DNA of 64,000 bases from a virus (Duplodnaviria; Heunggongvirae; Uroviricota; Caudoviricetes), in the IMG/VR virus record IMGVR_UViG_3300042275_000481, positions 38,172-102,171 of that record. One strand, 5' to 3'. Within the stretch, counting starts at the first letter, position 1; each line of letters starts with the position of its first letter. The notes under the pieces were generated by a model. That model searched no databases. It was given only the letters and a program-made list of their open reading frames with translations, and was not told the origin of the DNA. This document shows positions 22,413-64,000 of the stretch, in pieces. The position numbers and the translations under genes are program-made.

Positions 22413-22518
22413 CCCTTCTTTTTTAATTATAATTTATTTCTTCTTCAGGTCATATTTATAATATATAAATAAAAGCATATTTACCCCCTTAAGTCTAGAG
22501 GTAAATATGCCTTATTTT

Positions 22519-23870: not shown

Positions 23871-23933
23871 TTTTTAACTATAATTAATTGTTATAAAAAA
23901 TTAAAAGTAAAATATATGATGTATGCTATAGGG

Positions 23934-24465
23934 CTACAATCTATCAGAAGCACAACTACCAGTAGCACAATCTGGATCTTCATCTGCTTCTTCTTTATAG
24001 TATTCATCAAGTTCTAAATATTTTGTTAGTAATTCGTGGGAAAGGTCATCTAATCCTTCAATAGCTTCTTCATATTCTTCTTTAGTAATAGTTTGATATG
24101 GAGCTTGTGCATATTGATGGTCAGTCAATGGTAAGAATGAAACCGCTGTGAAAGATTTCCAGTTTTCATATAACCATTCTGTTGCTGCTTCCCACTCATC
24201 ATTTTGAACAGATACTGTAATCGATGTATTTTGGTCAGTATAGTGTTCTTGGAATCTCTTATATCTGTCTAGTTGTTCAATAACTGAGACGTCAAATTTA
24301 GTTCTCTTTGCTTCTGATTTAACTGGGAAATATATTACAGCTGTTGTATCAGGTCTTGTAATATCATCTTCAATTCTCCAGTTAAGCTTACTAATCACTT
24401 TGAACATTGGGTTTGTTTTATCAATGCGAATAGTTCTATAATAATATGGACTGTGGCTCATATGT
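23934..24465 (-). CDS. nrdJ: class II (NrdJ-like) ribonucleotide reductase, exon 3 of 3 (C-terminal part)
   Basis: Continues the conserved ...SS-G-x-E-P...Y-x-RR region as (V)HMSHSPYYYRTIRI. C-terminal redox cysteine pair DCATGSCASDRL. Confidence 0.65.
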
Positions 24466-27987: not shown

Positions 27988-28986
27988 ACCACCGAAGGTT
28001 TTGAGTGGCTCTCCAGCTGGTCGGATGTTATTAAACACCATTCTAATATTCTTATAATCATGGTCAATTTCATAACTCATGTATTTTAAGAATTCAGTTA
28101 CAGCTTTACCCCAACCATCTCTGCTGTCTCCAACAATAATTGAAATAGTTCCATCAAGTTTTAGAACCTGAGTTTTGTCTTTTCTCATTGTCTTTGGAAG
28201 TGGGTTGTAAGGCACAACTTGTAATTTTACATCGCTTCTAAATCTTGGAAGTTTTTCTGCAACATCCCAAGTAATTCTGTATCCAACTCCAGCACCAACA
28301 GATAATAGATATAAAATATCATAGAATGAGTCTAATGTGTCTGGTTCAATAAATGAGCAGTTGAATAAACTTAAAGGATAACGTTCTGCAGCACTTGATC
28401 CACCTGTGAACATTGCACGTCCACTAAGGAAAGCTCTAAGATTAAACTGCATGTCAAATAATTGCTCAGCTTCTCTTTTAAGAAACTGCATAACTTTTTC
28501 TTCACGTTCACGAGTATCCATATTGATATTATGGTCTGTGGCACGTAAAATTGTTTCTTTAAATGTTTCTCGTCTACCTAATTCAACTACATCTCGACTA
28601 TATGTTCTCAAATAAGTAAATTTACTTACAGGGCCCATATGTTTTGGGTAGCTGTCATAGTTCACAAGGAAACTCGGTGCTAAGTACTCAGAGCTATAAA
28701 CAACATCTTTCAACGATTCTCTTCGTTTCGCTCTTGCATTTCTTCTTAATATATAATGCTCAACAGCTTCAGGATATTCCCTGATTGCATGTTGCACTTT
28801 GTTTTGAATCTCTTCTATTCCAATACCATCATAAACAACTACAGATTTAGCCATCTCTTGAATCTTTGAGTATAGTTCCTCTGCTCTTTCTTCTCCATAA
28901 GTCTCTCTGAACGCTTTGTAGATTGCCTGTTCGATTTTGGAGACATCGAATTTTTGCAATTCACCAGTTCTTTTACGAATATACAT
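27988..28986 (-). CDS. nrdJ: class II (NrdJ-like) ribonucleotide reductase, exon 1 of 3 (ATP-cone N-terminus)
   Basis: N-terminal ATP-cone (RKRTGELQKFDVSKIEQAI). Exon ends ...KTFGG. Confidence 0.7.
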
Positions 28987-30772: not shown

Positions 30773-31369
30773 TTATTTATCAGATGGTTTCTTGATTTCG
30801 TCAATAATTCCATATTTTAATGCATCTTCTGCAAACATCCAACTGTCACGTTGTGTATCTTTTTTAAGTTGAGTAACTGTCTTGTTACATGATTTTGCAA
30901 TCATCTTAAGCAATTTCTCATTTAATTGTTTTGTAAAGTCAAGAGAAACTTCCATATCTTGGATATTTCCTTGAGTTCCACTAGATACTTGATGAAGCAT
31001 TACAGTTGCATTTGGTAGCGCAAAACGCTTGTCACCTTGAGACAGAATAGCTGCGCCCATAGATGCAGCAAGACCTTTAACACAAGTATAAACTGGTGCT
31101 TCAATATCTTTCATAACATCAATAATAGCCAATCCGTCAAGAACGGATCCTCCCGGACTGTTGATGTATAATTGAATAGGTTGTTTGCTAATTTTATTCA
31201 AATGTAACAATGTTTGTGTAATATAGCTAGCTTGTCTTTCATCAACAACACCTTCTAAATGGACAACACGGTCGTCAATTTGTGCACGTTGAATATCATA
31301 TTTAGGTTCTGAGTAATAAGTCCCTGAACTAGTCATAGGCTTATTAATATTTTTCGGATCAAAATTCAT
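30773..31369 (-). CDS. clpP: ClpP-family serine protease (S14; ClpP/NfeD-like)
   Basis: YINSPGGSV, Ser nucleophile in GLAASMGA, His in MLHQVSSG. 198 aa. Confidence 0.8.
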   Translation of the reverse strand: MNFDPKNINKPMTSSGTYYSEPKYDIQRAQIDDRVVHLEGVVDERQASYITQTLLHLNKISKQPIQLYINSPGGSVLDGLAIIDVMKDIEAPVYTCVKGLAASMGAAILSQGDKRFALPNATVMLHQVSSGTQGNIQDMEVSLDFTKQLNEKLLKMIAKSCNKTVTQLKKDTQRDSWMFAEDALKYGIIDEIKKPSDK

Positions 31370-31433: not shown

Positions 31434-32543
31434 TTATGGATTTATAATAATTCCGGATCCATCAGTAATAACTTGTGGCAACTCACCATTCCATGTATTT
31501 AAATACTCGATATATTGAATATAATCAAAGATTACCTTTAATTCTTCTGGAGTACTTCCTGAAGTATCAACTGTATATGTTGTAACCTCTGTAACTGGAT
31601 CTGTGGTCGATGTAACTGGCATACCTAATGTTCTGGCAACATCAACGACCTTAGCTGACAATGCAGCTGCTTCAGCCTGAGCGATTGCAAGAATAGCGTT
31701 TGCTTCACCTTTAGCTTCTTCTAGAGCCGATTCTGCTTCAAGAATAGTTGTTGCTAATTGTTGTTCAGCCTGAATGATGGCAATTTGTTTTTCAGTTTCA
31801 GCTTTTAATCTTTGTTGATCTGCAATCATCTTAGCTTCAACAGCTGCTTCAAAAGCATCTGAAAATGCAAAATCTGTAAGATAAATCGCAACAATTTCAA
31901 CAGGCATTCCTCTACCATTAATTTCCTCAACAATTAAGGTTTCTATAGAAACAGATAATGCGGATCTTTGTGAAATTAAATCCTCAGCGGTATATTGTGA
32001 TAAAGACGATTTAGTTCTTTCCATAACAAGCGAACCTAATCTATCTCTAACATTTTGAACATCTCCACCATATTTTTCATAGATTGTTTGAGCTTGTTCT
32101 CTCTTAATTCTCCACTGAACTGTAAGCATTGCGTCTACAGGCTGGGAATCGTTAGAATAGAATGATATTCCCATATCTTCAAGATTGTCATATCTGATTT
32201 CTTGAACTTTTAATGTATATTTGTGATATTTTTCTAATGGGCTTTTAACCTTTAAACCAGGTTCATATACAACTCCTTGAATATCTCCTAATTGAGTAAC
32301 AACCACTACTTCGGTTGCATCAATAGTTTGAAACATTCCAAATAATACAATTAATGCGCCAAGTGGAGCAAGTAACACAAGTTTACGGAATTTCCATCCG
32401 AACTTATATTGTTCTTCTGTATATTTTTCAACAGTTCCATCATATTTTACTTTTTGTTTCTCAACAATATATGAATGTTCTCCTAGGCCAAGACCAATGA
32501 ATAAACCAATAACTAAAATAAATGCAAAAATAATTAAAAACAT
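31434..32543 (-). CDS. SPFH/band-7 (stomatin/prohibitin/HflKC-like) membrane protein
   Basis: N-terminal TM helix. SPFH core domain. Long Ala/Glu/Gln coiled-coil (AEQQLATTILEAESALEEAKGEANAILAIAQAEAAAL). Confidence 0.75.
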   Translation of the reverse strand: MFLIIFAFILVIGLFIGLGLGEHSYIVEKQKVKYDGTVEKYTEEQYKFGWKFRKLVLLAPLGALIVLFGMFQTIDATEVVVVTQLGDIQGVVYEPGLKVKSPLEKYHKYTLKVQEIRYDNLEDMGISFYSNDSQPVDAMLTVQWRIKREQAQTIYEKYGGDVQNVRDRLGSLVMERTKSSLSQYTAEDLISQRSALSVSIETLIVEEINGRGMPVEIVAIYLTDFAFSDAFEAAVEAKMIADQQRLKAETEKQIAIIQAEQQLATTILEAESALEEAKGEANAILAIAQAEAAALSAKVVDVARTLGMPVTSTTDPVTEVTTYTVDTSGSTPEELKVIFDYIQYIEYLNTWNGELPQVITDGSGIIINP

Positions 32544-32612: not shown

Positions 32613-33216
32613 TTATACTGATACTACTTCTTTTTCTTTTTGCTTGGACTCGATACGATCAATAGCCACAAGCATTTGTTTTCTTACAGCGCGCTTCAAT
32701 CCACGTGCACCATAAGTTTCGATATCAGCTGTCTTAATGATATCATCGATATCAGATTTAATGAATTTAACATCTTTTTCCATTTCCATGTACTCTTGAT
32801 ATTCTTTCTTGTATCTGTCGATTAGTGTTTCAGCGATATCTTTTTCAAGACCGTTGAACACAATGATTTCATCTAAACGGTTGATGAATTCTGGACGGAA
32901 ATGCTTTTCAACATTTTCTCTAATTTCGCTTGACTCAGTTTTATGAGTTACGAATCCAGAACTTCTAGGTTTAGCAAAGTCTTTACCATAACCTAAGTTC
33001 GTTGTGAAAATAATAATCGCATTTCTAAATGAAACACGATTTTTATGGTTATCAGTCATTTCACCTGTATCTAAGATATTCAATAATGTATCGAATACTT
33101 TTGGATGAGCTTTTTCAATTTCATCAAATAGAACGACTGAGTTTGGATACTGTTTGATTTTTGCAACTAAACCTGATTCATCATCATGGCCTATATCTTT
33201 TGTGTTACGATAGTTC
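32613..33216 (-). CDS. ClpC/ClpA-like double-AAA+ ATPase, exon 3 of 3
   Basis: GHDDESGLVAKIKQYPNSVVLFDEIEKAHPKVFDTLLNILDTGEMTD (D2 Walker B/sensor), RPEFINRLDEIIVF (sensor 2), GARGLKRAV. The 5' boundary is uncertain (33191-33216). Confidence 0.65.
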
Positions 33217-33491
33217 GCTAAACTATCTCTTTATATTTCTATAAAGAACTGACTATATCTTCACCCGATAAACGGGGTACTGCATTTCGAGTTCGCTTGA
33301 ACCCTACTCCCATAAGGGATAGTCGATGAACCTTCATCTCATTGAGATGTTTGGCTGCGGATTGCCCAATCTCTTGCCTTTTTACCATCTCTCCGACGTT
33401 ACTCTTCGATTAACAGGTAGCTAAGAGCTCTAAGGGGTTTCCCGCAATTAACAGTATTTTCTTTTGTATATCACTATACAATGGGGCGTAT
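33217..33491 (-). mobile_element. ORF-less group I intron (Clp intron B)
   Basis: R (revcomp of gggatagtcgatgaacc, 33316-33332) and S (33251-33259) elements. Conserved gcggattgcccaatct and gctctaaggggtttcccgcaatta blocks. Proposed 5' splice site after U of tgg-att. The 3' splice site is ambiguous: ..tagcg or ..gatata. Confidence 0.5.
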
Positions 33492-33628
33492 AATCCACCC
33501 AGGGGCACTACCAGTAATTTTTGTTACATCCATTTCAGTACCATATTCACCCATATTTAATTTGATTAAGTTTCGTTCAGCACCACAGAATTGCTTTGCA
33601 ACAATTTTACAAGTTTCGGTTTTACCGA
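33492..33628 (-). CDS. ClpC/ClpA-like ATPase, exon 2 of 3 (46-aa micro-exon)
   Basis: Encodes VGKTETCKIVAKQFCGAERNLIKLNMGEYGTEMDVTKITGSAPGWI. This is the remainder of the D2 Walker A (GPTG|VGKTE) through the ...G-A-P-P-G-Y-like motif. Confidence 0.6.
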
Positions 33629-33938
33629 CCGTTTATATTCCATCGAAATCGTTAATTTCAATGCGTTCTCTTATGAACTGCTTATACTTTCATATAAGAC
33701 TAGACTATATCATCACCTTTTTCAGGTGGTTTACATTTCGACTCACTTGAGTCTACTCCTTACGGATAGTCGTTGAACTTTTCTCTTATTAAGAGACTTA
33801 GCTGCTGATTGCCCAATCTACACACTTTTCAAGCCTTGGCTTTTCCTCACGGATCGCAGTGGCAGTGTAGCTCTAAGGGGTTTCCAGCAATTAGTAAACT
33901 TTGCTTATGTAAATTTCTTTACATAGGGGCTAAATTTA
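33629..33938 (-). mobile_element. ORF-less group I intron (Clp intron A)
   Basis: Exon 1 ends GPTG (ggt, U) followed immediately by TAA. The intron ends ..ataaacg (G) before gtcggtaaaacc. R (33754-33768) and S (33693-33701) elements, plus the gctgctgattgcccaatct and gctctaaggggtttccagcaatt blocks. Confidence 0.65.
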
Positions 33939-35408
33939 ACCCGTAGGACCTGCAAATACCATTGATGTCAATGGTTTCTCTGGATCGACTAATCCTCTTT
34001 CAATGTATCTTAGGTTCTCAATAACACGGTTCAATGGTCTTTCTTGACCTAATAGAACACGTTTCAACTCTTTTGCAGTTGCTTCTGTTTTGTTGTCAGC
34101 AATATTGATATCATATTTGACTTTAATCGCTGTGCGAACATCATCTGTGAAAACAATTTCACCGTCTTCATTGAAAACAGTTGAACTGGCAAATGCAAGT
34201 TCCAACATATTAATTGCTTTTGCTGGATTTGCTTGGTCAAGGGTGTATTTTTCAGAATAGTCTAAGACTTTTCTTACTAAATCGTCCTCAGCCTTCTTAC
34301 CAAAATATTCTTCGATATCAGGTTGTACACCTTTAAGAATTTGATAAGTTTGTTGTTTTGTAGGCTCACTAATGTTTACCTTATGGAAACGTCTTTCTAA
34401 TGCTTTGTCTTTGCTGATGTGTTTTTGATATTCATCATCAGTTGTAGTCCAAATCATTTGAATTTCACCACGAGTGATATATGGTTTAAGAATATTACCA
34501 CCACTTGCAGCTCCTTCTGCGTCTCCTAATTTCACCATCATATGTGCTTCATCAATGAACAGAATTACTTCTGGATTTTCTTTGACAAGTTTAATGATGT
34601 TCATAAGTTTTTCTTCAAAATCACCACGATATCTAGTTCCAGCAACTAATGCACCTGGATCTAATTGGTATACAATTTTGTTTCTGAACTTTTTAATAAC
34701 ATTTTTATTATTAATACGATTTACGAATTCATATACTGCAACAGTCTTACCTGTACCAGCAGGTCCAACGAGAATCGCATTTCTAATTGATTTTCCTGAC
34801 AAAGCCATTTGAATTTGATTAACAGCATTGTCTGCACCGATTACAACTGGTTTCGCTTGTTTCACATATCTGTTAAGATTTGTTAACTCACGGATTTTTT
34901 CCAATGCATCGATTTCTTGTTTAGTTGCAACAATATTAAATGCTTCAACAATTTTCTCAGACATTTGGTCAACTTTTTGAGTTGAACCGCCGAGAACAAA
35001 TTCAAGAATACTTCTAAGTTTATAACTTGGGTCTGAAAATAACACTTTAATAAGGTCTTCAACTTGCATTTGTCTGCGTTGTGCAAGAGCATCTCTTTTA
35101 AGTTGATTTCTTACAGCATTACCTTCTTCATGCCAAGTAACTTCAAAACGTTCTCCGCCTACATCCAATCCAGGATATAGTTCCAAGAATACCTTTTCAA
35201 AATCTTCTCCCTTAACTTCGTATTCTTGTAAGATATTCGTTAGAGTTTCATACGTCTCAGCAAATCTTTCAGTATCTTTATTCTTCTTCAAGAAGATTGT
35301 TGTACCTAAGAATAGATGAGGTGTACCAACCCAATTTTGATAGTTCTTAATTGCAATTTGTCCCGCTTTTTGCGAAATCATTTCGACTTCTTGTGATAGT
35401 GCCTTCAT
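33939..35408 (-). CDS. ClpC/ClpA-like ATPase, exon 1 of 3 (Clp-N repeat, D1 AAA+, start of D2)
   Basis: D1 Walker A GPAGTGKT. Walker B ILFIDEAH. ALERRF. Ends at ...MVFAGPTG (first half of the D2 P-loop). Confidence 0.75.
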
Positions 35409-38851: not shown

Positions 38852-38948
38852 AATTTTGTTTCCTCCCTGTTATTTGTTTTGTCGAGTTATAATTTTCCAG
38901 TAACTCGCATTTATAATATATAGTTTAAAACTTATTTAAAAATACAAC

Positions 38949-42469: not shown

Positions 42470-43348
42470 TTAATCCTCCTCTTTAAGAATATCCTTTGCT
42501 AAGATGTCACATATTTCATTAAAATTATTGTCATCGTGACCTCTTGTCCATTTAAACAGAATAACATGGTCTGTTTGTTTTGATAAATTGTAAATCTCTT
42601 GAATCAATTCTTTATTAGCTATATCTTTCTTTGCATAGTTTTTGAAGTTATTATTCTTCCAAGTATAATACCATTCCCTGAATACTTTAACGCCATATTC
42701 AGAATCTGATATAACAACTTGGTACTTCTTCTTTCCAAAGTTTTCTATAGCTACTTTAATACCAGTTAGTTCACCGATATTATTAGTTCCGTCTTGAACT
42801 TTTCCAGATAATCCTAAATAACTAAATTTCTTATCTGTGAATTCATCTAGAACGCCATTTGAATCTTCTTGCAGCAATTTCGCTACACCATAACTCGCTT
42901 CGTTAGTATCTTTTTTAAAGCTACCATCTGTATAAGTGACATCAATCTTTTCATCACTTATTTCGGCAAGTATAGATATTTCAAGGAATATCTTTTCTAA
43001 TACAATATGATTACCTTGATTAAAAATTGTAGCTAGTGAATATATGATATTATTTGTTACCTCAATCACACTATTAATTTTCTGAAATAATGTTTCTTGC
43101 AACAATATCATCTGCTCTGTAAGATTTACTGGTGCGTCTAATATTGGAACCAACACATAATTATAATTTAATTCTTTTGCCTTTCCTGGCAGCTGTGTTT
43201 TTATCTTTGATGTGTAAGCCAGTTCTTTCAAAACTTTCTGATCCAGAAAGTTCTCCATACTAGTGCTATCATTAACAAAGATGTTGCAAATTATATATTT
43301 CAATATATTTCTCCTCCTGTAAATAAATTTATATTGCTCACATCTCAT
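42470..43348 (-). CDS. protein with C-terminal RNase H1-like domain
   Basis: YTDGSFKKDTNEASYGV, SDSEYGVKV..W...WKNN, WTRGHDDNNFNEICDILAKD follow the RNase H1 DEDD pattern (TDGS ... DS.Y ... W.KGH.G...NE.AD.LA). Confidence 0.55.
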   Translation of the reverse strand: MRCEQYKFIYRRRNILKYIICNIFVNDSTSMENFLDQKVLKELAYTSKIKTQLPGKAKELNYNYVLVPILDAPVNLTEQMILLQETLFQKINSVIEVTNNIIYSLATIFNQGNHIVLEKIFLEISILAEISDEKIDVTYTDGSFKKDTNEASYGVAKLLQEDSNGVLDEFTDKKFSYLGLSGKVQDGTNNIGELTGIKVAIENFGKKKYQVVISDSEYGVKVFREWYYTWKNNNFKNYAKKDIANKELIQEIYNLSKQTDHVILFKWTRGHDDNNFNEICDILAKDILKEED

Positions 43349-43419
43349 AAATATAATATATAAATGAAAAAAATATTAAGAAAAGACAAACCAGATGGTT
43401 TGTCTTAAATATTAACTAA

Positions 43420-44965: not shown

Positions 44966-45000
44966 TGGCAAAAAAAAAAGATAACCGAAGTTATCTTTTA
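44966..45000 (-). terminator. intrinsic terminator hairpin gataaccgaagttatc with A/T runs
   Basis: Fourth member of the aaccgaa-loop hairpin family. Confidence 0.45.
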
Positions 45001-45489
45001 TAAGTTATCGATAATAAACTCAATTAATTCAGCTTTTTTCATTCTAGAATAACCATGAAGGTCATTTTCCTTAGCCATCTCTTTAAGCTCAACTAGAGTC
45101 ATTTTTCTTAAATTATCTCTAGTAAGAGTTTCAGAAGGTTCTTCGATTTCCTCTTCTTCAAATTCCTTTGTAAGTTCTTCTTCATGATCTGCTAAAGTTT
45201 TTATACCTTTGATCTCTTCATTATAATTCTCATGAAACATACTTAACTGAATCGCATTGTCTTTTTCTTCTTTAATTTCTTCCTCTTGAATAGTCTCTTC
45301 TTCAATTGGTTGTTGTACTCTTGTTATTGTTTCTGGCTCACGTTTTGGATCCATTTTAAACATTGATTCATATTTTTCATATGATTTGTTAATATCATTT
45401 TCTTTAGTTTTTCTTGGTCTAATTGTTATAATTAAAAATATAATAACTAAGAGGCCAATCACACCATAAATAATGTATTCCTGTGGCAT
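44998..45489 (-). CDS. membrane-anchored protein with C-terminal Rho_N/HeH motif
   Basis: N-terminal TM helix (IIYGVIGLLVIIFLIITI). C-terminal LRKMTLVELKEMAKENDLHGYSRMKKAELIEFI (Rho-N-like). Confidence 0.45.
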   Translation of the reverse strand: MPQEYIIYGVIGLLVIIFLIITIRPRKTKENDINKSYEKYESMFKMDPKREPETITRVQQPIEEETIQEEEIKEEKDNAIQLSMFHENYNEEIKGIKTLADHEEELTKEFEEEEIEEPSETLTRDNLRKMTLVELKEMAKENDLHGYSRMKKAELIEFIIDNL

Positions 45490-47700: not shown

Positions 47701-49125
47701 TTATTCGTAGTTGTCTATTTCAATGATTTTTTTAGCATTTTTCTTATAGAATCTTTTTCTGGTTTTCATCTGATTAACGGTCGATGGATACCCAATGTCT
47801 GTTACGTCAATTAATATTGAGGATTTATTTTCCCCTTGTCTCAATCTTCCCATTATTTGTTCAGTCTTTACTAAACTTCCGAATGGAACAAAATTTATCA
47901 AAATTTCTAAATCTTGGACATCAATTCCTTTATCAAACATCTTGTCATTCGTTAGAATAACGTCTTGCTTTAGTGCTTCTTCTCGTTCTGATTTTTTGAC
48001 TTCACCAATAAATAAACCTGTACTTAAATTTATGTTCTCATCTAAATCAGCTTTAAGTTTTTTTATTAAACTTATTGTTGGAAGCATTATAGCTACTTTC
48101 TTTTTCCGTTCTTCTAGTTTAAACTTCTCAAAGATATCCAATACAACTTTGAGAAATATCTCATAACTTTCATTCTCTAGGTTGGAAGCCCATTTACCTG
48201 CATTGAAACCATACTTCGTTTTAGAAGCAAGTTGTTCGTCAAGGGATGGTTTACTATCCATTTTGAAGAGAACTACAGTGTGATATTTTTCACCATATAT
48301 TCCTTTACCATTAAAATATGGAATTCGTCTTAAAACTTTTCCATATAAATGGTCATCCGTATAGCTACTACGACTTGGTGTCGCAGTTAAGAAGATTGTA
48401 TACTCAACATTGCTCAGAGAGTTAATCATACACACATTTTTAAAATTAACGTGTGCTTCATCAAAAACTCTGATTCCAATTTTGAGCTTATTCATCAATA
48501 AATTTATTGAATTATAATCTTCATCTAGCATATTAGTCAGTGTCCTGTGTATAGCAATATATACTTTTCCACTAGGACTCTTCTTTTCTTTTTCTACAAT
48601 CTCTGTCCCTGAAAGGATTACAACGTCACCTTGCTTTAGATTTGTGTGTTTAAGAAATTCTCTCTCCCACTGCAAGGCAAGTTCGACAGTATCAACAATA
48701 ACTAAAGGTCTTTTTTTATACTTAGATATCACGTTTATAGTAACATAAGTTTTACCTTTACCTGTTCTTAATGATAATAATCTCTCTCTCATATAGTTAT
48801 CATTTTTCATTTTCATTAGAAAATTGATACTATCTTTTTGCAAGTCGTCTCTGGGACCATAATTCATAGTATATACTACTTGAGATGATTTGGATGTTGT
48901 TTTGTAGTTATATGATACATCTTTGTTAGGAAAGTGCTTTTGTATCTGGTCTAATCCAATACTTGATGGGAAATACAGATCATTGTCTATTAATGTAAAT
49001 GCTGAAAGTGTATATTTATGTTGAACTTTATCCCACAGGGAATATTGATAGTTTACATTCTTATACGCTTGTGATTCTAAATCAACATTTCGTACAATAA
49101 TAGAGTTTCTTCCCACTTCTATCAT
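47701..49125 (-). CDS. SF2 (DEAH-type) helicase
   Basis: Motif I LRTGKGKT. Motif II VFDEAH. Motif III LTATP. Motif VI QIMGRLRQ. Confidence 0.7.
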   Translation of the reverse strand: MIEVGRNSIIVRNVDLESQAYKNVNYQYSLWDKVQHKYTLSAFTLIDNDLYFPSSIGLDQIQKHFPNKDVSYNYKTTSKSSQVVYTMNYGPRDDLQKDSINFLMKMKNDNYMRERLLSLRTGKGKTYVTINVISKYKKRPLVIVDTVELALQWEREFLKHTNLKQGDVVILSGTEIVEKEKKSPSGKVYIAIHRTLTNMLDEDYNSINLLMNKLKIGIRVFDEAHVNFKNVCMINSLSNVEYTIFLTATPSRSSYTDDHLYGKVLRRIPYFNGKGIYGEKYHTVVLFKMDSKPSLDEQLASKTKYGFNAGKWASNLENESYEIFLKVVLDIFEKFKLEERKKKVAIMLPTISLIKKLKADLDENINLSTGLFIGEVKKSEREEALKQDVILTNDKMFDKGIDVQDLEILINFVPFGSLVKTEQIMGRLRQGENKSSILIDVTDIGYPSTVNQMKTRKRFYKKNAKKIIEIDNYE

Positions 49126-49140
49126 CCGCTCTCACCTCTC

Positions 49141-51063
49141 TTAATAGTATAAATAATCCATTAGACTTTCTTCATCTTTTTCATACGTTTTTAAGTTTAT
49201 GAATTGCTCAGGTAGTCTTTCAAATGCTAATGCTTTTGCGATTGGACCATTCAATACTGTATTCGATACTCTTAGTATCTCATAATTATTTAATCTCTTC
49301 TTAGAGAAATCTAATTTGTTTCCTGTCTCTTTGTCCACGATTAATACAGAACTAATCATTTCAGCATGAACTGACATAATATCTAGTCCATTTTCTAAGA
49401 TAAGATCATCAAAGTTATTTACTAATTCATCATAGTTTTTGACATCAAGATGCCCACTAGATTCAATAAGGTCAAGAATTTGTTGCAATGATTTTGTTAG
49501 TTCATTGTTTTTAGCCATGAACGTAAATACAGCTTCATTATCGTCAAAATCGCTTCCTTTAAGTTTTATAACTTTAGTACTTTCTTCTTCCCCATCAAAA
49601 TCATATTCTTCGTCAAACTCATCTTTAATATTATTCATATTATAATATAATTTGACTTCTGGTGTCTTGTATGTAAAGACTTTCTTTCCTTGATGAATGA
49701 TTTCAATCTTTTCTGTATATTCACCAATTTCATCTTCATCTTGGTCTTCGATAGGAACTTTGTAAACAAGTACATCCGTATCTGGGTCTTTGATGAAAAT
49801 AGAATTCATATTGATTGAGAAATAGTCTAAGAATGGTTTCTTATCGTTGTAATTCCAATCAATTTTTTCTGAATTTGTGGTCAATAAATGTTTTGCGGAA
49901 AGCAATTTCTGTGTAAGTGGATTTGTTAGAAGTAATACAGATAATAATCCAGTATTTAAATCCTCATTGATTTCAGATAATTCTGAACCATAACAAGTTC
50001 TACAAACATGTCCTTCAGCCGCACATGTAACTGGCGAGCGCAGACCAATAATTTTTCCAATCAAATCTTTATTCTTGTTGGAATCTACTGTTAACAATTC
50101 GGACTCTTTCTTTCCATCTTTGTCAATAATGTAGTAATGTCTTCCATGGATTTGATCTAATTTCTTCTGAGTTTCTATATTATATTTAATATAATGCTCA
50201 GTTCCGCAGTCAACATGACTATGGTCATGATAACGGTCAATTAATGCTAATGATAATTTTCTTGTAAGATAGCCAGATTTTCTTACTTGTCTAGCGTTTG
50301 TTATGAGCGCCTTTCTTGTACCTTTTGCATTAATGAAATAGTTTTGAATAGTCTTTAAACCATTTAGATAATTCTCATCAATAGCATGGGGTATAATACT
50401 GCCATCAATATCAGGTTTCAGACCAATGAACCCAATTGCTTGTGTAAGCTGTTTCTTGTTAATTCCTGTATCCGCAGTCATAAATGGATAAAGTTCTGTC
50501 TCTGGACGGTCTAAGAAGAATTTCTCTATCTCATGTCCAAGTTTACTAAACTCATCTTCAATATCATTAAACTGCATTCTATCTTCTAACTTGTAGTTGA
50601 ATATTGCTTCTGCTTCTGGATCTTCCACATATAAGCGAACAAAGTCATGGAATGATATACTATTTCCAGCAAGTACATTTAACTCACCAGATAAGTCTGA
50701 CATTTCATTAATTGTTTCAGCTATAGTTTTTCGAAGATTATCAAAGTCAACTACAGTCTTTCCTTTGGCGATTATACTATTAAAATATTCATTAAGATTG
50801 TCCGCTGTGACAGATGCGAATCCGAAGATAAAATCTTCAGTCAAGACGACATCTTTTTCAACAAACGGTTTCATAATAAGTAAATTAATCAGCACTCTAC
50901 CAAGTGTTGCGTCAATAATCTGAGCTCCAATTTGTATCTTTGCAGGATTCTTTCTGGCGCTATAATCTTGCAAAATCAAATTCTTCAGATCGTTCTTCGT
51001 GTACTCATATTCTTCGTATTTACTGAAGATATTCGTGAAATTAAATAGTCTTTCTGAGCTCAT
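49141..51063 (-). CDS. multisubunit RNA polymerase beta'-like subunit, C-terminal-half fragment
   Basis: GTRKALITNARQVRKSGYLTRKL matches rpoC ...G.RKGL.DTALKTA.SGYLTRRL. RSPVTCAAEGHVCRTCYG matches the beta' ...C....GVC..CYG region. Followed by an ...LLTNPLTQKLL... segment aligned to the trigger-loop region. Confidence 0.6.
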   Translation of the reverse strand: MSSERLFNFTNIFSKYEEYEYTKNDLKNLILQDYSARKNPAKIQIGAQIIDATLGRVLINLLIMKPFVEKDVVLTEDFIFGFASVTADNLNEYFNSIIAKGKTVVDFDNLRKTIAETINEMSDLSGELNVLAGNSISFHDFVRLYVEDPEAEAIFNYKLEDRMQFNDIEDEFSKLGHEIEKFFLDRPETELYPFMTADTGINKKQLTQAIGFIGLKPDIDGSIIPHAIDENYLNGLKTIQNYFINAKGTRKALITNARQVRKSGYLTRKLSLALIDRYHDHSHVDCGTEHYIKYNIETQKKLDQIHGRHYYIIDKDGKKESELLTVDSNKNKDLIGKIIGLRSPVTCAAEGHVCRTCYGSELSEINEDLNTGLLSVLLLTNPLTQKLLSAKHLLTTNSEKIDWNYNDKKPFLDYFSINMNSIFIKDPDTDVLVYKVPIEDQDEDEIGEYTEKIEIIHQGKKVFTYKTPEVKLYYNMNNIKDEFDEEYDFDGEEESTKVIKLKGSDFDDNEAVFTFMAKNNELTKSLQQILDLIESSGHLDVKNYDELVNNFDDLILENGLDIMSVHAEMISSVLIVDKETGNKLDFSKKRLNNYEILRVSNTVLNGPIAKALAFERLPEQFINLKTYEKDEESLMDYLYY

Positions 51064-51201
51064 ACATACCTCCTATGAAGCTTAAATTCTCATGGTGCTT
51101 CAAGTATATAATATATTTTTATATTAATTTTAAACGTTTAAATTTTTTTGACTATGATAAATAAGGACTAACTTTTGTTAGTCCTTTTAATTAAAATAAT
51201 A

Positions 51202-54045
51202 TTATTTACTTTCTTTTAAGTTAACTAATTCTTGTGATTTTGCTTTTGCAGCCTCACCATATCTATCATGAAGCTGTTCTTGTAGTTTCTTAGCAAGAAT
51301 AGTTGTTCTTACAAGTTCTTCATAAAGAGGATCTTGCGATTCACGAGCGATAAGAAGAGACATTTGATTTTCCAATTTGTTTCTCTTTTCATCAGCAGTT
51401 AATACAACTTTACTATCTTTAGAGAAATAATCTGCTTCTAATAGGAAAGCTTCTTTAATAGATTTATAACCTTCAGTTACATCTTCAGGTTGAGCTTTTT
51501 CATCTTCTTTTTCATCAGCAGGATCTTCTAATTCACCATCATTATTGATAGTGTCAGATCCAGCATCATTAAGTTCTTCAGTTGATTTAGGTTCTTTTTC
51601 TTCGGCTTCTTCAATGATTTCAGCACGAACTTTTTTACCTTCTTCGTCAGCAGCATCATGAGGTTTAACAGAAACTTCATCATTTTTAACTTCTGGTTCA
51701 ACTTCGCAATCAGAGTCTTTCTTAGTTTTTTCTTTTTCCTCAGCTGGATTTAGAACTTCTTCTTCATTAACAACAGAATCTTCAGATTCTTCCTTTTCAT
51801 CATCATCTGATTCTTCATCATGATCTTCATCTTTAGAATCGTCTTCTAATTTTTCAGGAACTTTGTCTTCGTCATCTTTGTCGCCTTTAGTATTCTTTTC
51901 AAGTTCTTCTGGAAGTTCTTTCTTTTCTTCAGCTTCTACAACAACTTCTTTAACTTCTTCAACTTCTTTATGTTCATCACTTGGATAAACATCAGCATTG
52001 TCATCTTTAGGAGCGTCTGCAGAACCATCATTTTCTTTAGTAGCTTCATTGTCAGAATGAGCAGCATCACCTTTAGATGTTACTTCTTCAACAACAACTT
52101 CTTCTACATCATCTTCTTGCTTATGTTCATCAGCATAAAGATCTTCATTATCTACTTGGTCAGCATTTTCAGGATCATCTTTACCTTTAACTGCATCTTT
52201 TGTAGGATTATTAACTACATCAATAGCAGCAATTCCAGCTGTAGACATTTCTTTAAGAACAGCGTCAAGAACTTCTAAAGCTTCTTGTAATCTTGCAGCG
52301 TCAGATTCAGTAATTTGTTCTGATGGATTAGAAACAGGAAGTTCGATTTCGATTTTTTCTTTATATACTTTAAGATCCGCTTCGCTATCAGCAGGAACTT
52401 CAAAGTCTTCATTTAATTTTTTACCAGTAAATACACCATAAACTTCTTTTAGAGCTTCAGTAACGATTTCTTGTTCTTTATCACTAAGTTCTTTAGCAAA
52501 TTTTTCGTTTTCTCTAATTGGAAGTGTGATAAATACTGCATTTTCAGAAACTTGAATAGCGTCTTCAACGACTACTTCTTCAACTTCTTCAACTTCTTTA
52601 TGTTCATCAGCTGGGAAGACATCTTCATTATCATCTTTAGGTTCTTCTGATTCTGGTTTTCCTTCATCAGTAGCTTCATTATCTGTCTTAGCAACTTCAC
52701 CTTTAGATGTAACTTCTTCTTCAATAAGTTCTTTTTGAACTTTCTCAGGGTCAACTTCATCTGGTTGTGTTACTAATTCACCTTTAGAGTCTAATGTATC
52801 AGACTTAACATCATTAAGTTTATCTGCTTTTCCAGCATTTTCAACTTCTTTATTTGCTTTATCTAATTGCTCACCTTCTACAACAACTTCTTCGACTTCT
52901 TCTTTTTCCTCATGTTCATCTTTTGGATAAACATCTTCGTTATCGTCTTTAGGCTCTTCTGAAGTTCCTTCACCGTCTTTAGTAGCTTCAGGTTTAGCTG
53001 CTGCATCACCTTTATCAGTTACTTCTTCAACGACTACTTCTTCGACTTCTTCTGCTTCTTTATGTTCATCACTTGGATAAACATCTTCGTTATCGTCTTT
53101 AGGTTGTTCAGATTTTCCATCTTCTTCTTTAGTTGCTTCGTTATCTGTCTTAGCAACTTCACCTTTAGATGTAACTTCTTCTACAACAACTTCTTCGACT
53201 TCTTCGTCTTCATTATGTTCTTCTTTTGAATAAACATCTTCATTATCTGTATCTGGTTCTTTAGTTTCTGCGTCAGCGTCATCAGTAGCTACAGGTTCAG
53301 CTGCTGCATCACCTTTGTCAGTCACTTCTTCTTCACGTAGAGGTTTCATATCCCTAAGGATATCAAAGATACTTTCTAATGATTCGTTTACGCTTTCGAT
53401 GTTTTCATCTTTAGTTAGCGCTTTTTTATCTTGTTTGATAGTATCATCTCCTTCTTTATCTTTTGTATCATTAACATCTTTATCATTTGCTTGAACTTCT
53501 GGTTCTAATTCTTTTTCTTCAGCATCGATCTCATCATTTTCAGGAGATTCTACTTCTGCATTGACCTTTTGTCCACTAACTCTAGCACTTTCTGGTCCGT
53601 TATTTTGCATAGCTAGACGTTTTTGTTTCATCATTTCTGCATTTGCATTAGTTTCCCTAGCTTTTGCATTAGTTTCTTGAGGTGTATCAGCTTCTAATAA
53701 AACGTCAGCTTTAACAAATTTAGTATTAGGGTCATTAAGCTCTTTTAAGAATTTTGCACGTTCTTCAACAGCAAGTTCTCTCATAGAACTTACACCATAC
53801 TTCTCAAGAAGAAGATTCATTTTTTCTTTAGCAGAAAGGTCCTTGCTTTCAACAATTACTTCTTTTACTTCCTCAACTGCACTATGAGAATCCTTAGTGT
53901 ATACATCGGAATTTTTTAATTCTGGGTTACTTAATTCTGGGTTTGCCTTCTTAGTTGCTTTAGTTTCTAATTCTTCTAGAAGATTATCCAAAGCATTTTG
54001 TGTTTTTCCCTCATTAAGAAGACTACGTAGTTTATTTTTATCCAT
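51202..54045 (-). CDS. giant acidic tandem-repeat protein (947 aa)
   Basis: At least 5 tandem copies of a ~50-aa unit EEVTSKG(D/E)xAKTDNEATxE...PKDDNEDVYPSDEHKEVEEVEEVVVE. N-terminus is paralogous to 43420-44715 (VYTKDSHSAVEEVKEVIVES vs IYTKDSHKEVEEIKEVIVES). Confidence 0.55.
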   Translation of the reverse strand: MDKNKLRSLLNEGKTQNALDNLLEELETKATKKANPELSNPELKNSDVYTKDSHSAVEEVKEVIVESKDLSAKEKMNLLLEKYGVSSMRELAVEERAKFLKELNDPNTKFVKADVLLEADTPQETNAKARETNANAEMMKQKRLAMQNNGPESARVSGQKVNAEVESPENDEIDAEEKELEPEVQANDKDVNDTKDKEGDDTIKQDKKALTKDENIESVNESLESIFDILRDMKPLREEEVTDKGDAAAEPVATDDADAETKEPDTDNEDVYSKEEHNEDEEVEEVVVEEVTSKGEVAKTDNEATKEEDGKSEQPKDDNEDVYPSDEHKEAEEVEEVVVEEVTDKGDAAAKPEATKDGEGTSEEPKDDNEDVYPKDEHEEKEEVEEVVVEGEQLDKANKEVENAGKADKLNDVKSDTLDSKGELVTQPDEVDPEKVQKELIEEEVTSKGEVAKTDNEATDEGKPESEEPKDDNEDVFPADEHKEVEEVEEVVVEDAIQVSENAVFITLPIRENEKFAKELSDKEQEIVTEALKEVYGVFTGKKLNEDFEVPADSEADLKVYKEKIEIELPVSNPSEQITESDAARLQEALEVLDAVLKEMSTAGIAAIDVVNNPTKDAVKGKDDPENADQVDNEDLYADEHKQEDDVEEVVVEEVTSKGDAAHSDNEATKENDGSADAPKDDNADVYPSDEHKEVEEVKEVVVEAEEKKELPEELEKNTKGDKDDEDKVPEKLEDDSKDEDHDEESDDDEKEESEDSVVNEEEVLNPAEEKEKTKKDSDCEVEPEVKNDEVSVKPHDAADEEGKKVRAEIIEEAEEKEPKSTEELNDAGSDTINNDGELEDPADEKEDEKAQPEDVTEGYKSIKEAFLLEADYFSKDSKVVLTADEKRNKLENQMSLLIARESQDPLYEELVRTTILAKKLQEQLHDRYGEAAKAKSQELVNLKESK
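51930..53340. repeat. imperfect tandem DNA repeats (~150-bp units) inside 51202-54045
   Basis: Recurrent blocks such as ttcttcaacttctttatgttcatc...tggataaacatcttc(g/a)ttatc(g/a)tctttagg at ~51950, ~52580, ~52880, ~53040, ~53200. Confidence 0.6.
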
Positions 54046-60407: not shown

Positions 60408-61496
60408 TTATAGTTCTATAATATTTTCTAAAATTTGTTCAATCTTATTAAAATTCCAATAGGGTATCCTAATAAGTTTTATACCTTTTTGCTTACAATA
60501 TTCATCTTTTAAATGGTCATTGTATTTTTGTTCAGACAACTTATCTAAACCGAAAATAGGTTCATAATGAAATTCACCATCATATTCTATTAAGGTATTA
60601 CTATCAGATAGAAAAAAGTCAAATCTTAGTGGATTGATAAATTTCAAATCTTCAAACGAAAACTCTCTTTCAAACTGTATCTTTCTATTTTCTAGCCATT
60701 CTGATATTTTATTTTCACCCTTTGATGACTTACAAATAGGGCACCTATCACCAGATAGGAATCTTGTTGGACTAACGTCATATATATTACCACACTTATT
60801 ATGTTTTATTCCTATTTTTGTATGTGTGTTTGTATAATCTTCTAAAACACTATATTCGTCGCCTATTAGATTAAAAACTTCTTCCTTAAATTCTTTGGTG
60901 GATTTCTTAAATTTTCCATTACAAATAGGACACCTATCACCAGATAGGAATCTTGTTGGACTTACTTTATATTCACTATCACACACAAGATGACGCATTT
61001 TTATCTTTGAGTCGCAATTAACATAATCACTTAAAACACTATATTCGTCACCTACTAGATTAAAAACTTCTGCTTTAAAGTCCTCGGTAGATTTTTTTAT
61101 CAGTCCTGCACATTTTGGACAACCATGTCCTTTTAAGATATTTACAGGTGTTGGTTCATATTCAAAACCACATTTTTTGTGCCTCATAAGTATAGGAGTT
61201 TTGTTATTTTTATAATCACCCAATACTTCATATTCAGGTCCTAATATATCCATAACATCGTCTTTAAAGGTATCAATAGTTTTTCTTAGACCGTTTCCAA
61301 CTTTTATAATAGCACATTTTGGACAACCATGTCCCCGATTTATCATTCGGCTAGGATGTGCTTCAAATATATTTCCACACTTCTTGTGCTTCATGGTTAT
61401 TTTTGTATTGGTGTTTGTATACTCTCCTAAAACTTCATACTCATCACCAAATTTTACTTCAACTTCTTTAATAAATGATTCAGTAGTTCTTTTCAT
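60408..61496 (-). CDS. free-standing homing endonuclease (zinc-ribbon repeats + Vsr/DUF559-like nuclease)
   Basis: Five tandem H.KCG..(Y/F)...P...L.G.GCP.C modules. C-terminal IEYDGEFHYEP...D..K..YC...GIKLIRIPYWN. Confidence 0.6.
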   Translation of the reverse strand: MKRTTESFIKEVEVKFGDEYEVLGEYTNTNTKITMKHKKCGNIFEAHPSRMINRGHGCPKCAIIKVGNGLRKTIDTFKDDVMDILGPEYEVLGDYKNNKTPILMRHKKCGFEYEPTPVNILKGHGCPKCAGLIKKSTEDFKAEVFNLVGDEYSVLSDYVNCDSKIKMRHLVCDSEYKVSPTRFLSGDRCPICNGKFKKSTKEFKEEVFNLIGDEYSVLEDYTNTHTKIGIKHNKCGNIYDVSPTRFLSGDRCPICKSSKGENKISEWLENRKIQFEREFSFEDLKFINPLRFDFFLSDSNTLIEYDGEFHYEPIFGLDKLSEQKYNDHLKDEYCKQKGIKLIRIPYWNFNKIEQILENIIEL

Positions 61497-61558
61497 AAAA
61501 ACCTCCCTATACCTAGAATGTATAAATAAATTATTTGTTCTAAGTAAAGGGATTATTT

Positions 61559-62218
61559 TTACAGTTCAATTATGTTACTCTTATATTTTGTTTGGTCGAT
61601 GTCCTCAATATAGACACCCAAGCTTTCTAAAAGAATATATCCATTTTGCATATTTTTACTTACCATTGTTCGGTAGTCAATAAGTGGTCGTAGATATTCA
61701 GGAATTCTTTCCACACCTTTTGGAACAGCAACAACGCTCATTCCAAATCGTGAAATATCAATTTCAGGTTCATCTACGTTTCGATTAAATACTGTGCGAC
61801 TAATTGCGCCATATTTTTTCGGATAAGTATCTTTTAGTTTCTCTAATTCTGGATGATTTTCATCTACTGTTTTTAACTTAAGTAGATTTACTTTTTCTGG
61901 TGGAACTATTTGATTTTCAGGTTCTAGCGCATTCCATATAATTGCTCCTCTAACCTGTTCAAGCGTAGATGGATCTTTATATTGCTCAAATTGCTCTATA
62001 CTCTTTGGAAGTGAATATAATAATTCTCCGCCTCTTAGTGATTCTTCAATTTCTAAACCTAATTCATCAAATTTATTAATAATAGTTCTAATATTAATAT
62101 CTTCCGCTGACAGAATATCTTCCTGTAAAATTGTCGTAAATTGTTCACGTAATTTCTTAGGAACGTTTGTTTTCCTTATGGCTAACATATATCTTCCATT
62201 GAGTTCGTTAACTCTCAA
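61559..62218 (-). CDS. 3'-terminal exon of an intron-interrupted gene of unknown product
   Basis: The ORF begins with TTG inside conserved intron-3' sequence (..cataagagaacg|cattgagag..). The true acceptor is probably ~62180-62200. Confidence 0.45.
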   Translation of the reverse strand: MRVNELNGRYMLAIRKTNVPKKLREQFTTILQEDILSAEDINIRTIINKFDELGLEIEESLRGGELLYSLPKSIEQFEQYKDPSTLEQVRGAIIWNALEPENQIVPPEKVNLLKLKTVDENHPELEKLKDTYPKKYGAISRTVFNRNVDEPEIDISRFGMSVVAVPKGVERIPEYLRPLIDYRTMVSKNMQNGYILLESLGVYIEDIDQTKYKSNIIEL

Positions 62219-62455
62219 TGCGTTCTCTTATGAACTGCTCATACTTTCATATGAGATGAGACTATATCTTCATCTTTCGATGTTTCCTGTTTCGGACCAC
62301 TTGGTCCTACTCCTTACGGATAGTCGTTGAACCTTCATCTCATTGAGATGTTTGGCTGCGGATTGCCCAATCTACACACTTTTCAAGCCTTGGCTTTTCC
62401 TCACGGATCGCAGTGGCAGTGTAGCTCTAAGGGGTTTCCCGCAATTAAGGAAATT
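62219..62455 (-). mobile_element. ORF-less group I intron (unknown-gene intron 2); boundaries approximate
   Basis: R (62318-62333) and S (62249-62257) elements, plus the gctgcggattgcccaatct and gctctaaggggtttcccgcaatt blocks. Nearly identical to Clp intron A. Confidence 0.55.
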
Positions 62456-62461
62456 TTATAA

Positions 62462-62550
62462 GAGCATAACTGTTTACCCTTAATATCAAGAACTGGTTTG
62501 TCTAATAGACGCCCAAGTTCACCTGTAATTAAACCGGCATACATAATTTT
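62462..62550 (-). CDS. internal micro-exon of the unknown intron-interrupted gene (approx. boundaries)
   Basis: Only one frame is open between the two introns: KIMYAGLITGELGRLLDKPVLDIKGKQ... It begins right after an intron-terminal G (..gagtttaattg|aaaatt). Confidence 0.4.
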
Positions 62551-63768
62551 CAATTAAACTCGCTAAGTTTAATTCGCTTTCGCTGCTCATATTTTCATAT
62601 GAGATAAGACTATATCTTCAGATATTTATTGAACGTAAATATCTGTCTTCCTTTTCCAATAGGCTTCTATTGTACTCGCATTGCGATAGTCGTTGAACTT
62701 TTTTCTTAAAATTAATTCTTCAAGTATATTTTCAAGTTGTTTATAATTTTTATATGATAATCTTAATAGTGTATACTTAGATAATTGTATAATATTATTT
62801 TTTCTATTGTCTCGTTCTCTAATAACATCAATAGATTCAAATAATGATTTTTCTTTAAAATGTTGTATTCCATCATATTCAATTATTAGATTTAAAGAGT
62901 CAATAATAATATCTACTCTTAAATCCGTATTGAATAATTTAGAATCAAATTCAAATAAAATATTATTTTTTTCTAAGAACTGAATTATTTTTCTTTCACC
63001 TTTAGAAACTTTCTTAGAACAAATAGGACATCTACTAGCAACAGATTTTGATATGAAATTGTTCGCTTTTACGTCCCATTCATGACCACATTTATTATGT
63101 CTTAGTTTAATTTTTGTTCTAGTGTTTGTATATGGTGATATTAATGAATACTCATCCCCAACAGTTTCCTCTAGTTTTCTTTTAAACATTTCTTCAGTCC
63201 AAGTTCCTTTCCCAGAACAATACGGACAAGAATTTTTTTGATTCAAAAGATTATTTGCTCTCATTTTGAATTCATGACCACATTTATTATGCTTAAAAAT
63301 TGATGATTTATTTGCATAACCTGAATAATCTAATACTGAATACTCATTATCTAATTCTATTTCTAGTCTTTTTATAAGATTTTTTTCAGTTAATCTTATA
63401 GAACCTGAACATTTAGGACACCTTCTTCCATTATTAAACGTATTAGGTGCTACTAAATACTCATGGCCACATTTATTATGTCTTATTAAGATTTTAGTTT
63501 TTGAATTTATATAATCATTCCCAAGAACTGTATATTCCATTCCAACTTGATTTTTTACTTTGTGTTTAAAACTTTCTAGTGTATCTTTTTTCATAATATC
63601 ACTCCTTAATAATTTGTTCAATGAGTGACAACATGAAATAAAAAGTTCTTAATTTTAAGAAACTTAGCTGCTGATTGCCCAATCTTTCAGATTTTCAAAC
63701 ATTCACGCTCACTTTTGCAAGTCACGTTGTAGTTCTGAAAGCTCTAAGGGGTTTCCAGCAATTAAAAA
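62551..63768 (-). mobile_element. group I intron (unknown-gene intron 1) carrying an intact homing endonuclease gene; 5' boundary approximate
   Basis: R (62674-62689, inside the 3' end of the HE ORF) and S (62618-62626). 5' blocks gctgctgattgcccaatct (63661-63679) and gctctaaggggtttccagcaatt (63742-63764). Confidence 0.55.
62626..63621 (-). CDS. intron-encoded homing endonuclease (zinc-ribbon repeats + Vsr/DUF559-like nuclease)
   Basis: Four H.KCGHE(Y/F/W)...N....RCP.CSG modules. IIEYDGIQHF...D..R..K......LLRLSY. Confidence 0.6.
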   Translation of the reverse strand: MNKLLRSDIMKKDTLESFKHKVKNQVGMEYTVLGNDYINSKTKILIRHNKCGHEYLVAPNTFNNGRRCPKCSGSIRLTEKNLIKRLEIELDNEYSVLDYSGYANKSSIFKHNKCGHEFKMRANNLLNQKNSCPYCSGKGTWTEEMFKRKLEETVGDEYSLISPYTNTRTKIKLRHNKCGHEWDVKANNFISKSVASRCPICSKKVSKGERKIIQFLEKNNILFEFDSKLFNTDLRVDIIIDSLNLIIEYDGIQHFKEKSLFESIDVIRERDNRKNNIIQLSKYTLLRLSYKNYKQLENILEELILRKKFNDYRNASTIEAYWKRKTDIYVQ

Positions 63769-64000
63769 GATTTTATAGAAGAACAATGCCACTTATTCTT
63801 CTTGTTTCTGGTCGCGAGAATTCTCTTATAAAGGAATTCAGACTTCATCGCAATAATAGGTTTATACTCATCTAACAGACCCATATTTCCAGTCATTTTC
63901 CAGAATATCTGTTTTAAAACTTCTGTTACAACATCGACATAGATGTTCATAACTGTCATTTGTTGAGTTTTATTTTCTTTGTCAAGTCCAAGTTCAGCTG
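63769..64000 (-). CDS. upstream exon of the unknown intron-interrupted gene (partial; continues beyond the window end)
   Basis: The frame is open from position 64000 to the in-intron TAA at 63762-63764 (...NIYVDVVTEVLKQIFWKMTGNMGLLDEYKPIIAMKSEFLYKRILATRNKK...). Confidence 0.4.

Follow-up and report, generated by a model that had tools for sequence, protein, structure and literature searches.

A probable AR9/PBS1-type non-virion RNA polymerase β′ C-terminal subunit in an uncultured phage

We analysed a stretch of 64,000 nucleotides (nt) from a Caudoviricetes virus (IMG/VR record IMGVR_UViG_3300042275_000481, positions 38,172 to 102,171; hereafter the window, to which all coordinates refer unless another contig is named). 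Its minus strand carries an open reading frame (ORF) at 49141..51063 that runs for 640 codons without interruption from an ATG at 51063. We assign this ORF, with a probability of about 0.93, to the C-terminal β′ module (β′C) of a split phage-encoded RNA polymerase (RNAP) of the AR9/PBS1 type, and specifically to the non-virion RNAP (nvRNAP), as the ortholog of AR9 gp154. The assignment draws on Pfam, PHROG, PDB and profile searches, on tblastn against AR9 and on fold comparison. Since the family has been characterised structurally and biochemically in AR9, we learn no new mechanism from the gene; what we regard as mildly new is how broad the clade is to which it belongs and that both AR9 promoter codes are kept at ∼33% protein identity.

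Homology, fold and anatomy of the subunit

When searched against all PDB sequences, the 640-residue product finds as its top match chain D of 7S00, the AR9 nvRNAP subunit gp154 (E=1.3e-87, query 14-638 / chain 33-630), to which it is 33% identical over 100% of its length. PHROG 3015 ("RNA polymerase beta subunit") matches the protein end to end (E=1.5e-76), and the Pfam domain RNA_pol_Rpb1_5 exceeds its gathering score (E=2e-8). With a profile of 24 family members searched against the PDB sequences, the match to 7S00_D reaches E=2.4e-210 (positions 3-629 / chain 2-631). Bacterial β′ chains in the PDB are matched at E=1e-10 to 1e-14 by the single protein (query 193-392 / E. coli 723-936) and at 1e-23 to 1e-27 by the profile, which reaches β′ residues ∼556-937; the homology is confined to this range and to C-terminal segments, and the N-terminal half of β′ is lacking. 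An AlphaFold model built from 33 homologues (predicted local distance difference test score, pLDDT, 82.9) recovers AR9 nvRNAP chain D as its best fold match (E=1.9e-42, template modelling score 0.66), followed by chain D of the phiKZ nvRNAP (8QUE, 4e-23) and by bacterial β′ (∼1e-16). The initial annotation, made from the letters and a list of ORFs, had read the product as a β′ (RpoC) fragment without its N-terminal half, and RpoC homology, for the C-terminal half only, is borne out by the searches with profile, sequence and fold alike. The outcome that it had named as refuting this reading, profile searches that fail to support RpoC, thus did not arise.

That annotation had also noted that the NADFDGD catalytic loop is missing, and indeed a search of the window in six frames finds no D[FYW]DGD motif. 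The profile similarity reaches back to β′ residue ∼556, and the split therefore falls after the catalytic-loop region and before the bridge helix. The split β′ chains of cyanobacteria and plastids (8GZG_Z, 8XZV_D, 8QMA_B) are also matched, and their N-termini lie no more than ∼80 residues from the phage split point. Membership among full-length bacterial RpoC proteins was considered and rejected, as the product does not combine the NADFDGD loop with regions F-H in a single chain. Bacterial β′, whose E. coli residues 723-936 align with residues ∼190-392 here, is much longer and has lineage-specific insertions that the phage protein lacks.

Conservation was read from alignments of 24 and 33 homologues that span 33-86% identity. 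The bridge helix is assigned to residues 239-274 (50242..50349, minus strand) from conservation, from a long helix in the model and from the alignment to bacterial SGYLTRRL. It contains SGYLTRKL at 263-270, the SGYLTR(K/R)L segment that had been recognized at the outset. G264, Y265 and K269 are invariant, and R268 is invariant in the 24-sequence alignment and present in at least 90% of the 33-sequence alignment. Four cysteines follow, C286, C347, C354 and C357 (49993..50208, minus strand), which are invariant in 24 sequences and at least 90% conserved in 33; Y358 and G359 are likewise invariant or nearly so. HMMER places SGYLTRKL, VDCGTEH and C-x6-C-x2-CYG opposite bacterial SGYLTRRL, IDCGTEH and C-x6-C-x2-CYG, so that the cluster corresponds to the zinc-site segment of bacterial β′, DCGT...C-x6-C-x2-CYG. 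From what is known of bacterial RNAP, we take the SGYLTRRL segment to be the bridge helix and the cysteine segment to be the second zinc site. The pattern ..C....GVC..CYG given in the initial annotation proved close to the mark: the cysteine segment is present and reads TCAAEGHVCRTCYG (C347, C354, C357), but its spacing is one residue longer, and it is AR9 gp154 that fits the pattern exactly.

Downstream of the cysteines, conservation and the model place the N-terminal arm of the trigger loop at residues 371-396 (49876..49953, minus strand). Its segment LTNPLTQKLLSAKHLLTT, residues 379-396, is nearly invariant in the family, with T384, Q385, L387, L388, S389, K391, H392 and L393 invariant and T396 invariant or nearly so. 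From the alignment register, H392 is presumably the counterpart of the catalytic-cycle histidine of the trigger loop, H936 of E. coli. The arm is followed by a trigger-loop insertion domain (TLID) at residues ∼400-515 (49519..49866, minus strand), which is collinear with the gp154 TLID at 400-508 and β-rich in the model, with β-strands at 415-502 and pLDDT values of 65-87. The gp154 TLID has a unique fold, unrelated to that of E. coli SI3 (PMC9209446). The C-terminal arm and the conserved segment after it (49444..49518, minus strand, from conservation and the model) contain NNELTKSLQQILDLIES, residues 519-535, which is again nearly invariant, with conserved positions running from N519 to E534. 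The trigger-loop-like region of the initial annotation thus resolves into LTNPLTQKLLSAKHLLTT and the C-terminal arm NNELTKSLQQILDLIES. The features of the gp154 family that were found are thus collinearity, closeness to the non-virion subunit, the bridge helix with the four cysteines and the trigger loop, the TLID, and a stand-alone split gene.

The gene model itself has been called in two ways. The Logan gene calls give the 640-aa start, while the JGI gene call for an identical sequence, P0001, begins at a TTG 28 codons downstream and yields 612 aa. We prefer the 640-aa start because a Shine-Dalgarno sequence, AGGAGG (51069..51074, minus strand, read from the sequence), precedes the ATG at 51063 by 5 nt, because the Logan calls agree, and because the gp154 alignment begins at residue 2-3. 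P0001 carries the label "cell fate regulator YlbF (YheA/YmcA/DUF963 family)"; this name and the internal TTG start are probably annotation errors. The identical 640-aa product occurs in public contigs (Logan) of up to 15.5 kb only.

Among cultured phages, the closest to β′C are AR9/PBS1 and relatives (33%), followed by Staphylococcus jumbo phages (29.5-32%), Listeria LPJP1 (28%) and Yersinia phiR1-37 (27%). AR9/PBS1 gp154 (chain D of 7S00, 7S01, 7UM0 and 7UM1) shares the termini, bridge helix, cysteine cluster, trigger loop and TLID; its gene likewise stands alone, with an early promoter before it and a gp156-type SF2 helicase after it. It differs by a 17-residue insertion near residue 36, which is absent from the whole uncultured clade, and the order of the gene relative to that of DNA polymerase differs as well. 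The β′C proteins of Staphylococcus S6, PB50, Machias and MarsHill and of phiR1-37 (g102) belong to the same family, at 27-32% identity over 90-99% of the length, and their phages make up the AR9-related group. They are no closer than AR9, and the window protein falls in a separate radiation seen in metagenomes only.

Assignment to the non-virion enzyme

AR9 encodes two split RNAPs, so that β′C could in principle belong to the virion-packaged enzyme, which transcribes early genes and whose β′C is gp264. A tblastn search of the whole AR9 genome with β′C does find gp264, at E=3.6e-6 over the SGYLTRKL-to-CYG core, where the two share an SGYxxKKL-type bridge helix and a C-x-C CxG core. The match to gp154 is full-length and, at E=1e-90, 85 orders of magnitude better. 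Proteins of the gp264 type are also only ∼400 aa long and are without the N-terminal region and the TLID. Because the gp154 match is far stronger and the gp264 type is short and is without these regions, we read β′C as the ortholog of the non-virion subunit. A relative whose β′C is 63% identical moreover encodes, beside its gp154 ortholog, a gp264 ortholog as a gene of its own (399 aa, E=1e-93), and an early promoter motif precedes β′C, as expected of an enzyme made after infection. We regard membership in the virion polymerase as extremely unlikely.

The initial annotation had named split β/β′ genes as the hallmark of the multisubunit RNAPs of phiKZ-like and AR9/PBS1-like jumbo phages together; β′C is of the AR9 type, for the non-virion enzyme, and not of the phiKZ type, the match to phiKZ-like phages being restricted to the core. 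If β′C were instead the ortholog of gp74, from the nvRNAP of the phiKZ-type, nucleus-forming Chimalliviridae with TATG promoters, one would cite the gp74 match (7OGP chain D, E=9e-11 with the single protein, query 203-395 / 206-391, and 1e-25 with the profile) and the 8QUE fold match. However, the likeness extends over ∼190 core residues that span the bridge helix through the first trigger-loop arm, with 15-16% identity in the fold alignment, whereas AR9 aligns over the full length at 31-33%; full-length gp74 homology was not found, and membership in the gp74 family was rejected. The best phage matches are all AR9/PBS1, Staphylococcus jumbo phages and phiR1-37, and the promoter motifs in the window are those of AR9. 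phiKZ gp74 has the same role in a split phage RNAP, though the fifth subunit and the promoter logic of phiKZ differ, and the chance that β′C is its ortholog is close to negligible. The comparison with the phiKZ and AR9 subunits that the initial annotation had proposed gives 1e-90 for gp154 and 3.6e-6 for gp264 by tblastn against AR9, and 9e-11 for gp74 in the PDB search.

A different reading is that β′C is a decaying or repurposed rpoC remnant, derived from the host or from an ancestral phage RNAP and non-functional in a polymerase. That only half of β′ is present and that the window holds no partner subunit would fit such an origin, but the length and the split point lie within a few residues of those of gp154, and more than 140 homologues have a like length of ∼620-640 aa. 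Little or no variation is seen at the residues of the bridge helix, the zinc cysteines and the trigger loop, the frame is intact behind a strong Shine-Dalgarno sequence and a conserved promoter motif, and partner genes are present in relatives. We consider a remnant very unlikely.

Several observations do weigh against the assignment of β′C to an nvRNAP of the AR9 type. The 64 kb hold no gene for β′N or β and none resembling gp226 (tblastn with gp270, gp105, gp089 and gp226 gives nothing below E=0.8), and no partner subunit could be tied to this exact phage, so that we infer the complete enzyme. No late-type motif precedes the β′C gene, which is a difference from AR9, where four of the five nvRNAP genes have promoters of the early as well as the late class (PMC5312081). 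The early promoter of β′C has one mismatch to the AR9 13-mer, and the AR9 virion RNAP reportedly tolerates single deviations poorly (PMC5312081); the same variant is conserved in the relatives.

Early and late promoter motifs

The virion RNAP of AR9 recognizes the published early consensus AAATATATATTAT-N6-G(+1) (PMC5312081). We built a position weight matrix (PWM) from 32 annotated AR9 early promoters, which themselves score 17.0-26.4 bits, and scanned the window with it. Six sites score at least 12 bits, all on the coding strand, where 0.75 are expected. The core ATATATTAT-N6-G is found 7 times against 0.49 expected, and none of 100 shuffles reaches 7. The site before β′C, AAAAATATATTAT-atactt-GA (51100..51120, minus strand, 20.2 bits), predicts a transcription start at the G at 51101 and hence a 5′ untranslated region of 38 nt. 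In three relatives (β′C 73%, 63% and 58% identical) and in AR9, the same element lies 57-67 nt ahead of β′C, with a hairpin before each, and the AR9 annotation places an early promoter before gp154. The further early motifs (12.9-24.6 bits by PWM) lie at 1868-1888, 21806-21826, 22450-22470, 38905-38925 and 43345-43365, all on the minus strand. The motif at 38905 precedes a gp028-like AAA ATPase gene, whose AR9 ortholog likewise has an annotated early promoter. The strongest early motif of the window lies upstream of an 827-aa gene that is cut by the left end (1-1154, minus strand) and continues in contig L014 (11605-14088); the gene has no PDB or PHROG match, and sequence extends only ∼2.2 kb past the left end. 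A sigma-70 promoter scan was uninformative in the AT-rich window (68 found against 52 expected).

β′C heads a run of seven tightly spaced minus-strand genes, from 51063 to 43420, with a hairpin at either end. The upstream hairpin (51163..51186, minus strand, 10-bp stem) has equivalents in the relatives; it is terminator-like, closes an upstream 947-aa gene and would insulate the β′C unit from it. A strong terminator-like hairpin at 43383..43406 (minus strand) is the predicted end of the unit, after which comes the early motif at 43345-43365. Starting 15 nt past the β′C stop is the gp156 ortholog, an SF2 helicase (47701..49125, minus strand; 37% identity, E=1.6e-88) that is predicted to be co-transcribed. 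The order of β′C followed by helicase recurs in AR9 and in the three relatives, with two small genes in between in the 63% relative. The predicted early unit also includes a 163-aa protein with a Rho_N-type domain (Logan/relatives' annotation; 44998-45489, minus strand), whose position is kept in two of the three relatives.

The AR9 late consensus AACA-N6-T(A/G)(+1) is used by the nvRNAP, which reads the template strand and requires deoxyuridine (dU) (PMC7598289, PMC9209446). In the intergenic DNA of the window, this consensus occurs 23 times in coding orientation against 7.3±2.7, and none of 1000 dinucleotide shuffles attains that number; in the opposite orientation there is no enrichment (7 against 4.3±2.1). 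Within 120 nt before genes the count is 13 against 2.8±1.5, and the AR9 positive control gives 72 against 12.6±3.9, so that upstream of genes the enrichment is 3-5-fold, as in AR9. Many of the sites have the extended form AACAAT..(A/T)TTA followed by a Shine-Dalgarno sequence and ATG. Such AACAAT..WTTA motifs, each with a Shine-Dalgarno sequence and start codon after it, have their first base at 2213, 3615, 8909, 14074, 19321, 20104, 23892, 25830, 35880, 39783, 54095 and 55599, all on the minus strand; the site at 8909 reads AACAATATTTTA and that at 54095 reads AACAATAAATTA. We note that several of the starts behind late motifs belong to ORFs of fewer than 60 aa that are absent from simple ORF lists.

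By analogy with AR9 (PMC5312081, PMC7598289, PMC9209446), the virion RNAP would transcribe the β′C gene from its ATATATTAT-N6-G promoter after injection. β′C would then assemble with a separately encoded β′N, which carries the catalytic loop, with βN and βC, and with a gp226-like σ-related specificity subunit, without α or ω. In such an enzyme, β′C would provide the bridge helix and trigger loop, which assist translocation and catalysis, together with part of the secondary channel and clamp, and the holoenzyme would use AACA-N6-T(A/G) promoters to express late genes without the host RNAP. The AR9 enzyme functions without α and ω. The AR9-type early and late motifs in the window indirectly suggest that transcription of this phage may likewise be independent of host RNAP, as the initial annotation had stated, and the window very probably belongs to a jumbo phage with a two-stage programme of its own, in which a virion RNAP acts first and a non-virion RNAP second.

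More tentatively, and at somewhat short of even odds, we propose that a large uncultured radiation of AR9-related jumbo phages keeps both the early ATATATTAT-N6-G and the late AACA-N6-TA code. If the DNA of this clade contains deoxyuridine, template-strand, dU-dependent promoter recognition would be a widespread environmental strategy that extends beyond a handful of cultured phages; if it contains thymine instead, the enzyme that reads the same promoter code would be a variant that does not require uracil. Uridine-containing genomes are reported for AR9 and phiR1-37 (PMC5312081). The window encodes a gp151-like HAD deoxyribonucleotidase, and relatives encode a deoxycytidine monophosphate (dCMP) deaminase; the two are compatible with dU-DNA metabolism. 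The clade would offer a distant, abundant and uncultured branch on which to test the conservation of template-strand, uracil-dependent recognition. The two motifs could also guide the annotation of contigs, with ATATATTAT-N6-G marking early genes and AACA-N6-TA late ones.

Partner subunits, uncultured relatives and neighbouring genes

The initial annotation had called for a search for the complementary β′N and β pieces, which are absent from the 64 kb and were found in relatives. Similarity to gp270 is absent from the window below E=4, and PHROG and Pfam scans of its other large ORFs show no RNAP domain. The tblastx matches of AR9 virion-RNAP genes in the window correspond to introns and homing endonucleases and not to RNAP exons. 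An IMG/VR scan with the single protein gave no relative, whereas an alignment used as the query gave relatives, among them at least 8 contigs on which β′C and β′N relatives are separate genes 3-140 kb apart. For five pairs of β′C and β′N clusters, the longest contig has the same length in both. In the 63% relative, both lie on the same strand of one 85,990-bp contig, β′C at 14.7-16.6 kb and β′N at 81.5-83.1 kb, 65 kb apart. Its β′N has an intact GDFDGD and is 33% identical to AR9 gp270, and two genes upstream of it lies the gp264 ortholog (38% identity to gp264), which is a gene distinct from β′C. This arrangement of a gp264-like virion β′C (399-400 aa), a dCMP deaminase and a non-virion β′N (relatives L225, 2415-6569, and L226, 2170-5407) recurs in the population of the 58% relative; the module is absent from the window, and the left end of the window shows no synteny with the β′N neighbourhood of the 63% relative. 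In other family members, βN- and βC-like genes, of the gp105 and gp089 types, lie near β′N; no gp226 homologue was found in any locus examined.

For the β′N of this exact phage, P0203 and P0287 were considered as candidates and rejected, as they come from other sample sets. The metagenome scan covered the best 80 of 416 relatives, of which none comes from samples Ga0451657/62/63/65. Identity cannot select the matching β′N because the relatives cluster as a star-like radiation. This metagenome-only radiation comprises at least 148 β′C proteins (E<=1e-10) on contigs of up to 333 kb; its sampled lineages are ∼55-63% identical to one another and ∼33% identical to AR9. When 40-60 kb was compared with a set of 50,697 phage records, near-identical DNA was not found, and thus no cultured close relative is available.

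Directly upstream of β′C lies the gene for a hyper-acidic (D/E-rich) repeat protein of 947 aa (51202-54045, minus strand), with a 150-bp repeat array at 52875-53332 and the late motif at 54095. It has weak PHROG matches, and partly homologous large ORFs occupy the same position in relatives. Toward the right end, the catalytic subunit of a family-B DNA polymerase (gp152-like; 60408-64000 region, minus strand, exons 61559-62218 and 62401-62553) runs off the window. It is interrupted by a group I intron at 62238-62540 (91.7 bits) and flanked by Hef-like homing endonucleases at 60408-61496 and 62626-63621; the homing endonuclease at the right end of the window matches no public record.

Introns or homing endonucleases also occur at two other loci. 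The ribonucleotide reductase large subunit is encoded in pieces (23556-28986, minus strand), of which one, at 27985-28986, comprises an ATP-cone and RNR_Alpha and another, at 25917-26801, is a barrel fragment. Genes for homing endonucleases are found among or near the pieces (26922-27848, 25458-25643, and an HNH gene at 23556-23870), and similarity to AR9 introns is found in the same region at 24453-24671. A ClpX/Lon-like AAA+ ATPase gene (minus strand, coding 33936-35408 and 32613-33083) contains two Rfam group I introns, at 33681-33948 (98.5 bits) and 33229-33506 (85.4 bits). Near it, on the same strand, are genes for an SPFH/Band-7 protein (31434-32543) and a ClpP protease (30773-31369, 8e-51).

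Two of the early motifs precede genes of other functions. A long-form ribosome hibernation-promoting factor of 182 aa (21864-22412, minus strand; Ribosomal_S30AE 5e-15, S30AE_C 7e-18) lies behind the motif at 22450-22470, which suggests an early manipulation of host ribosomes. The motif at 21806-21826 (17.9 bits) stands just upstream of the gene for a glyceraldehyde-3-phosphate dehydrogenase of 338 aa (20749-21765, minus strand; Gp_dh_N 3e-36, Gp_dh_C 4e-59), which is unusual among the auxiliary metabolic genes of phages.

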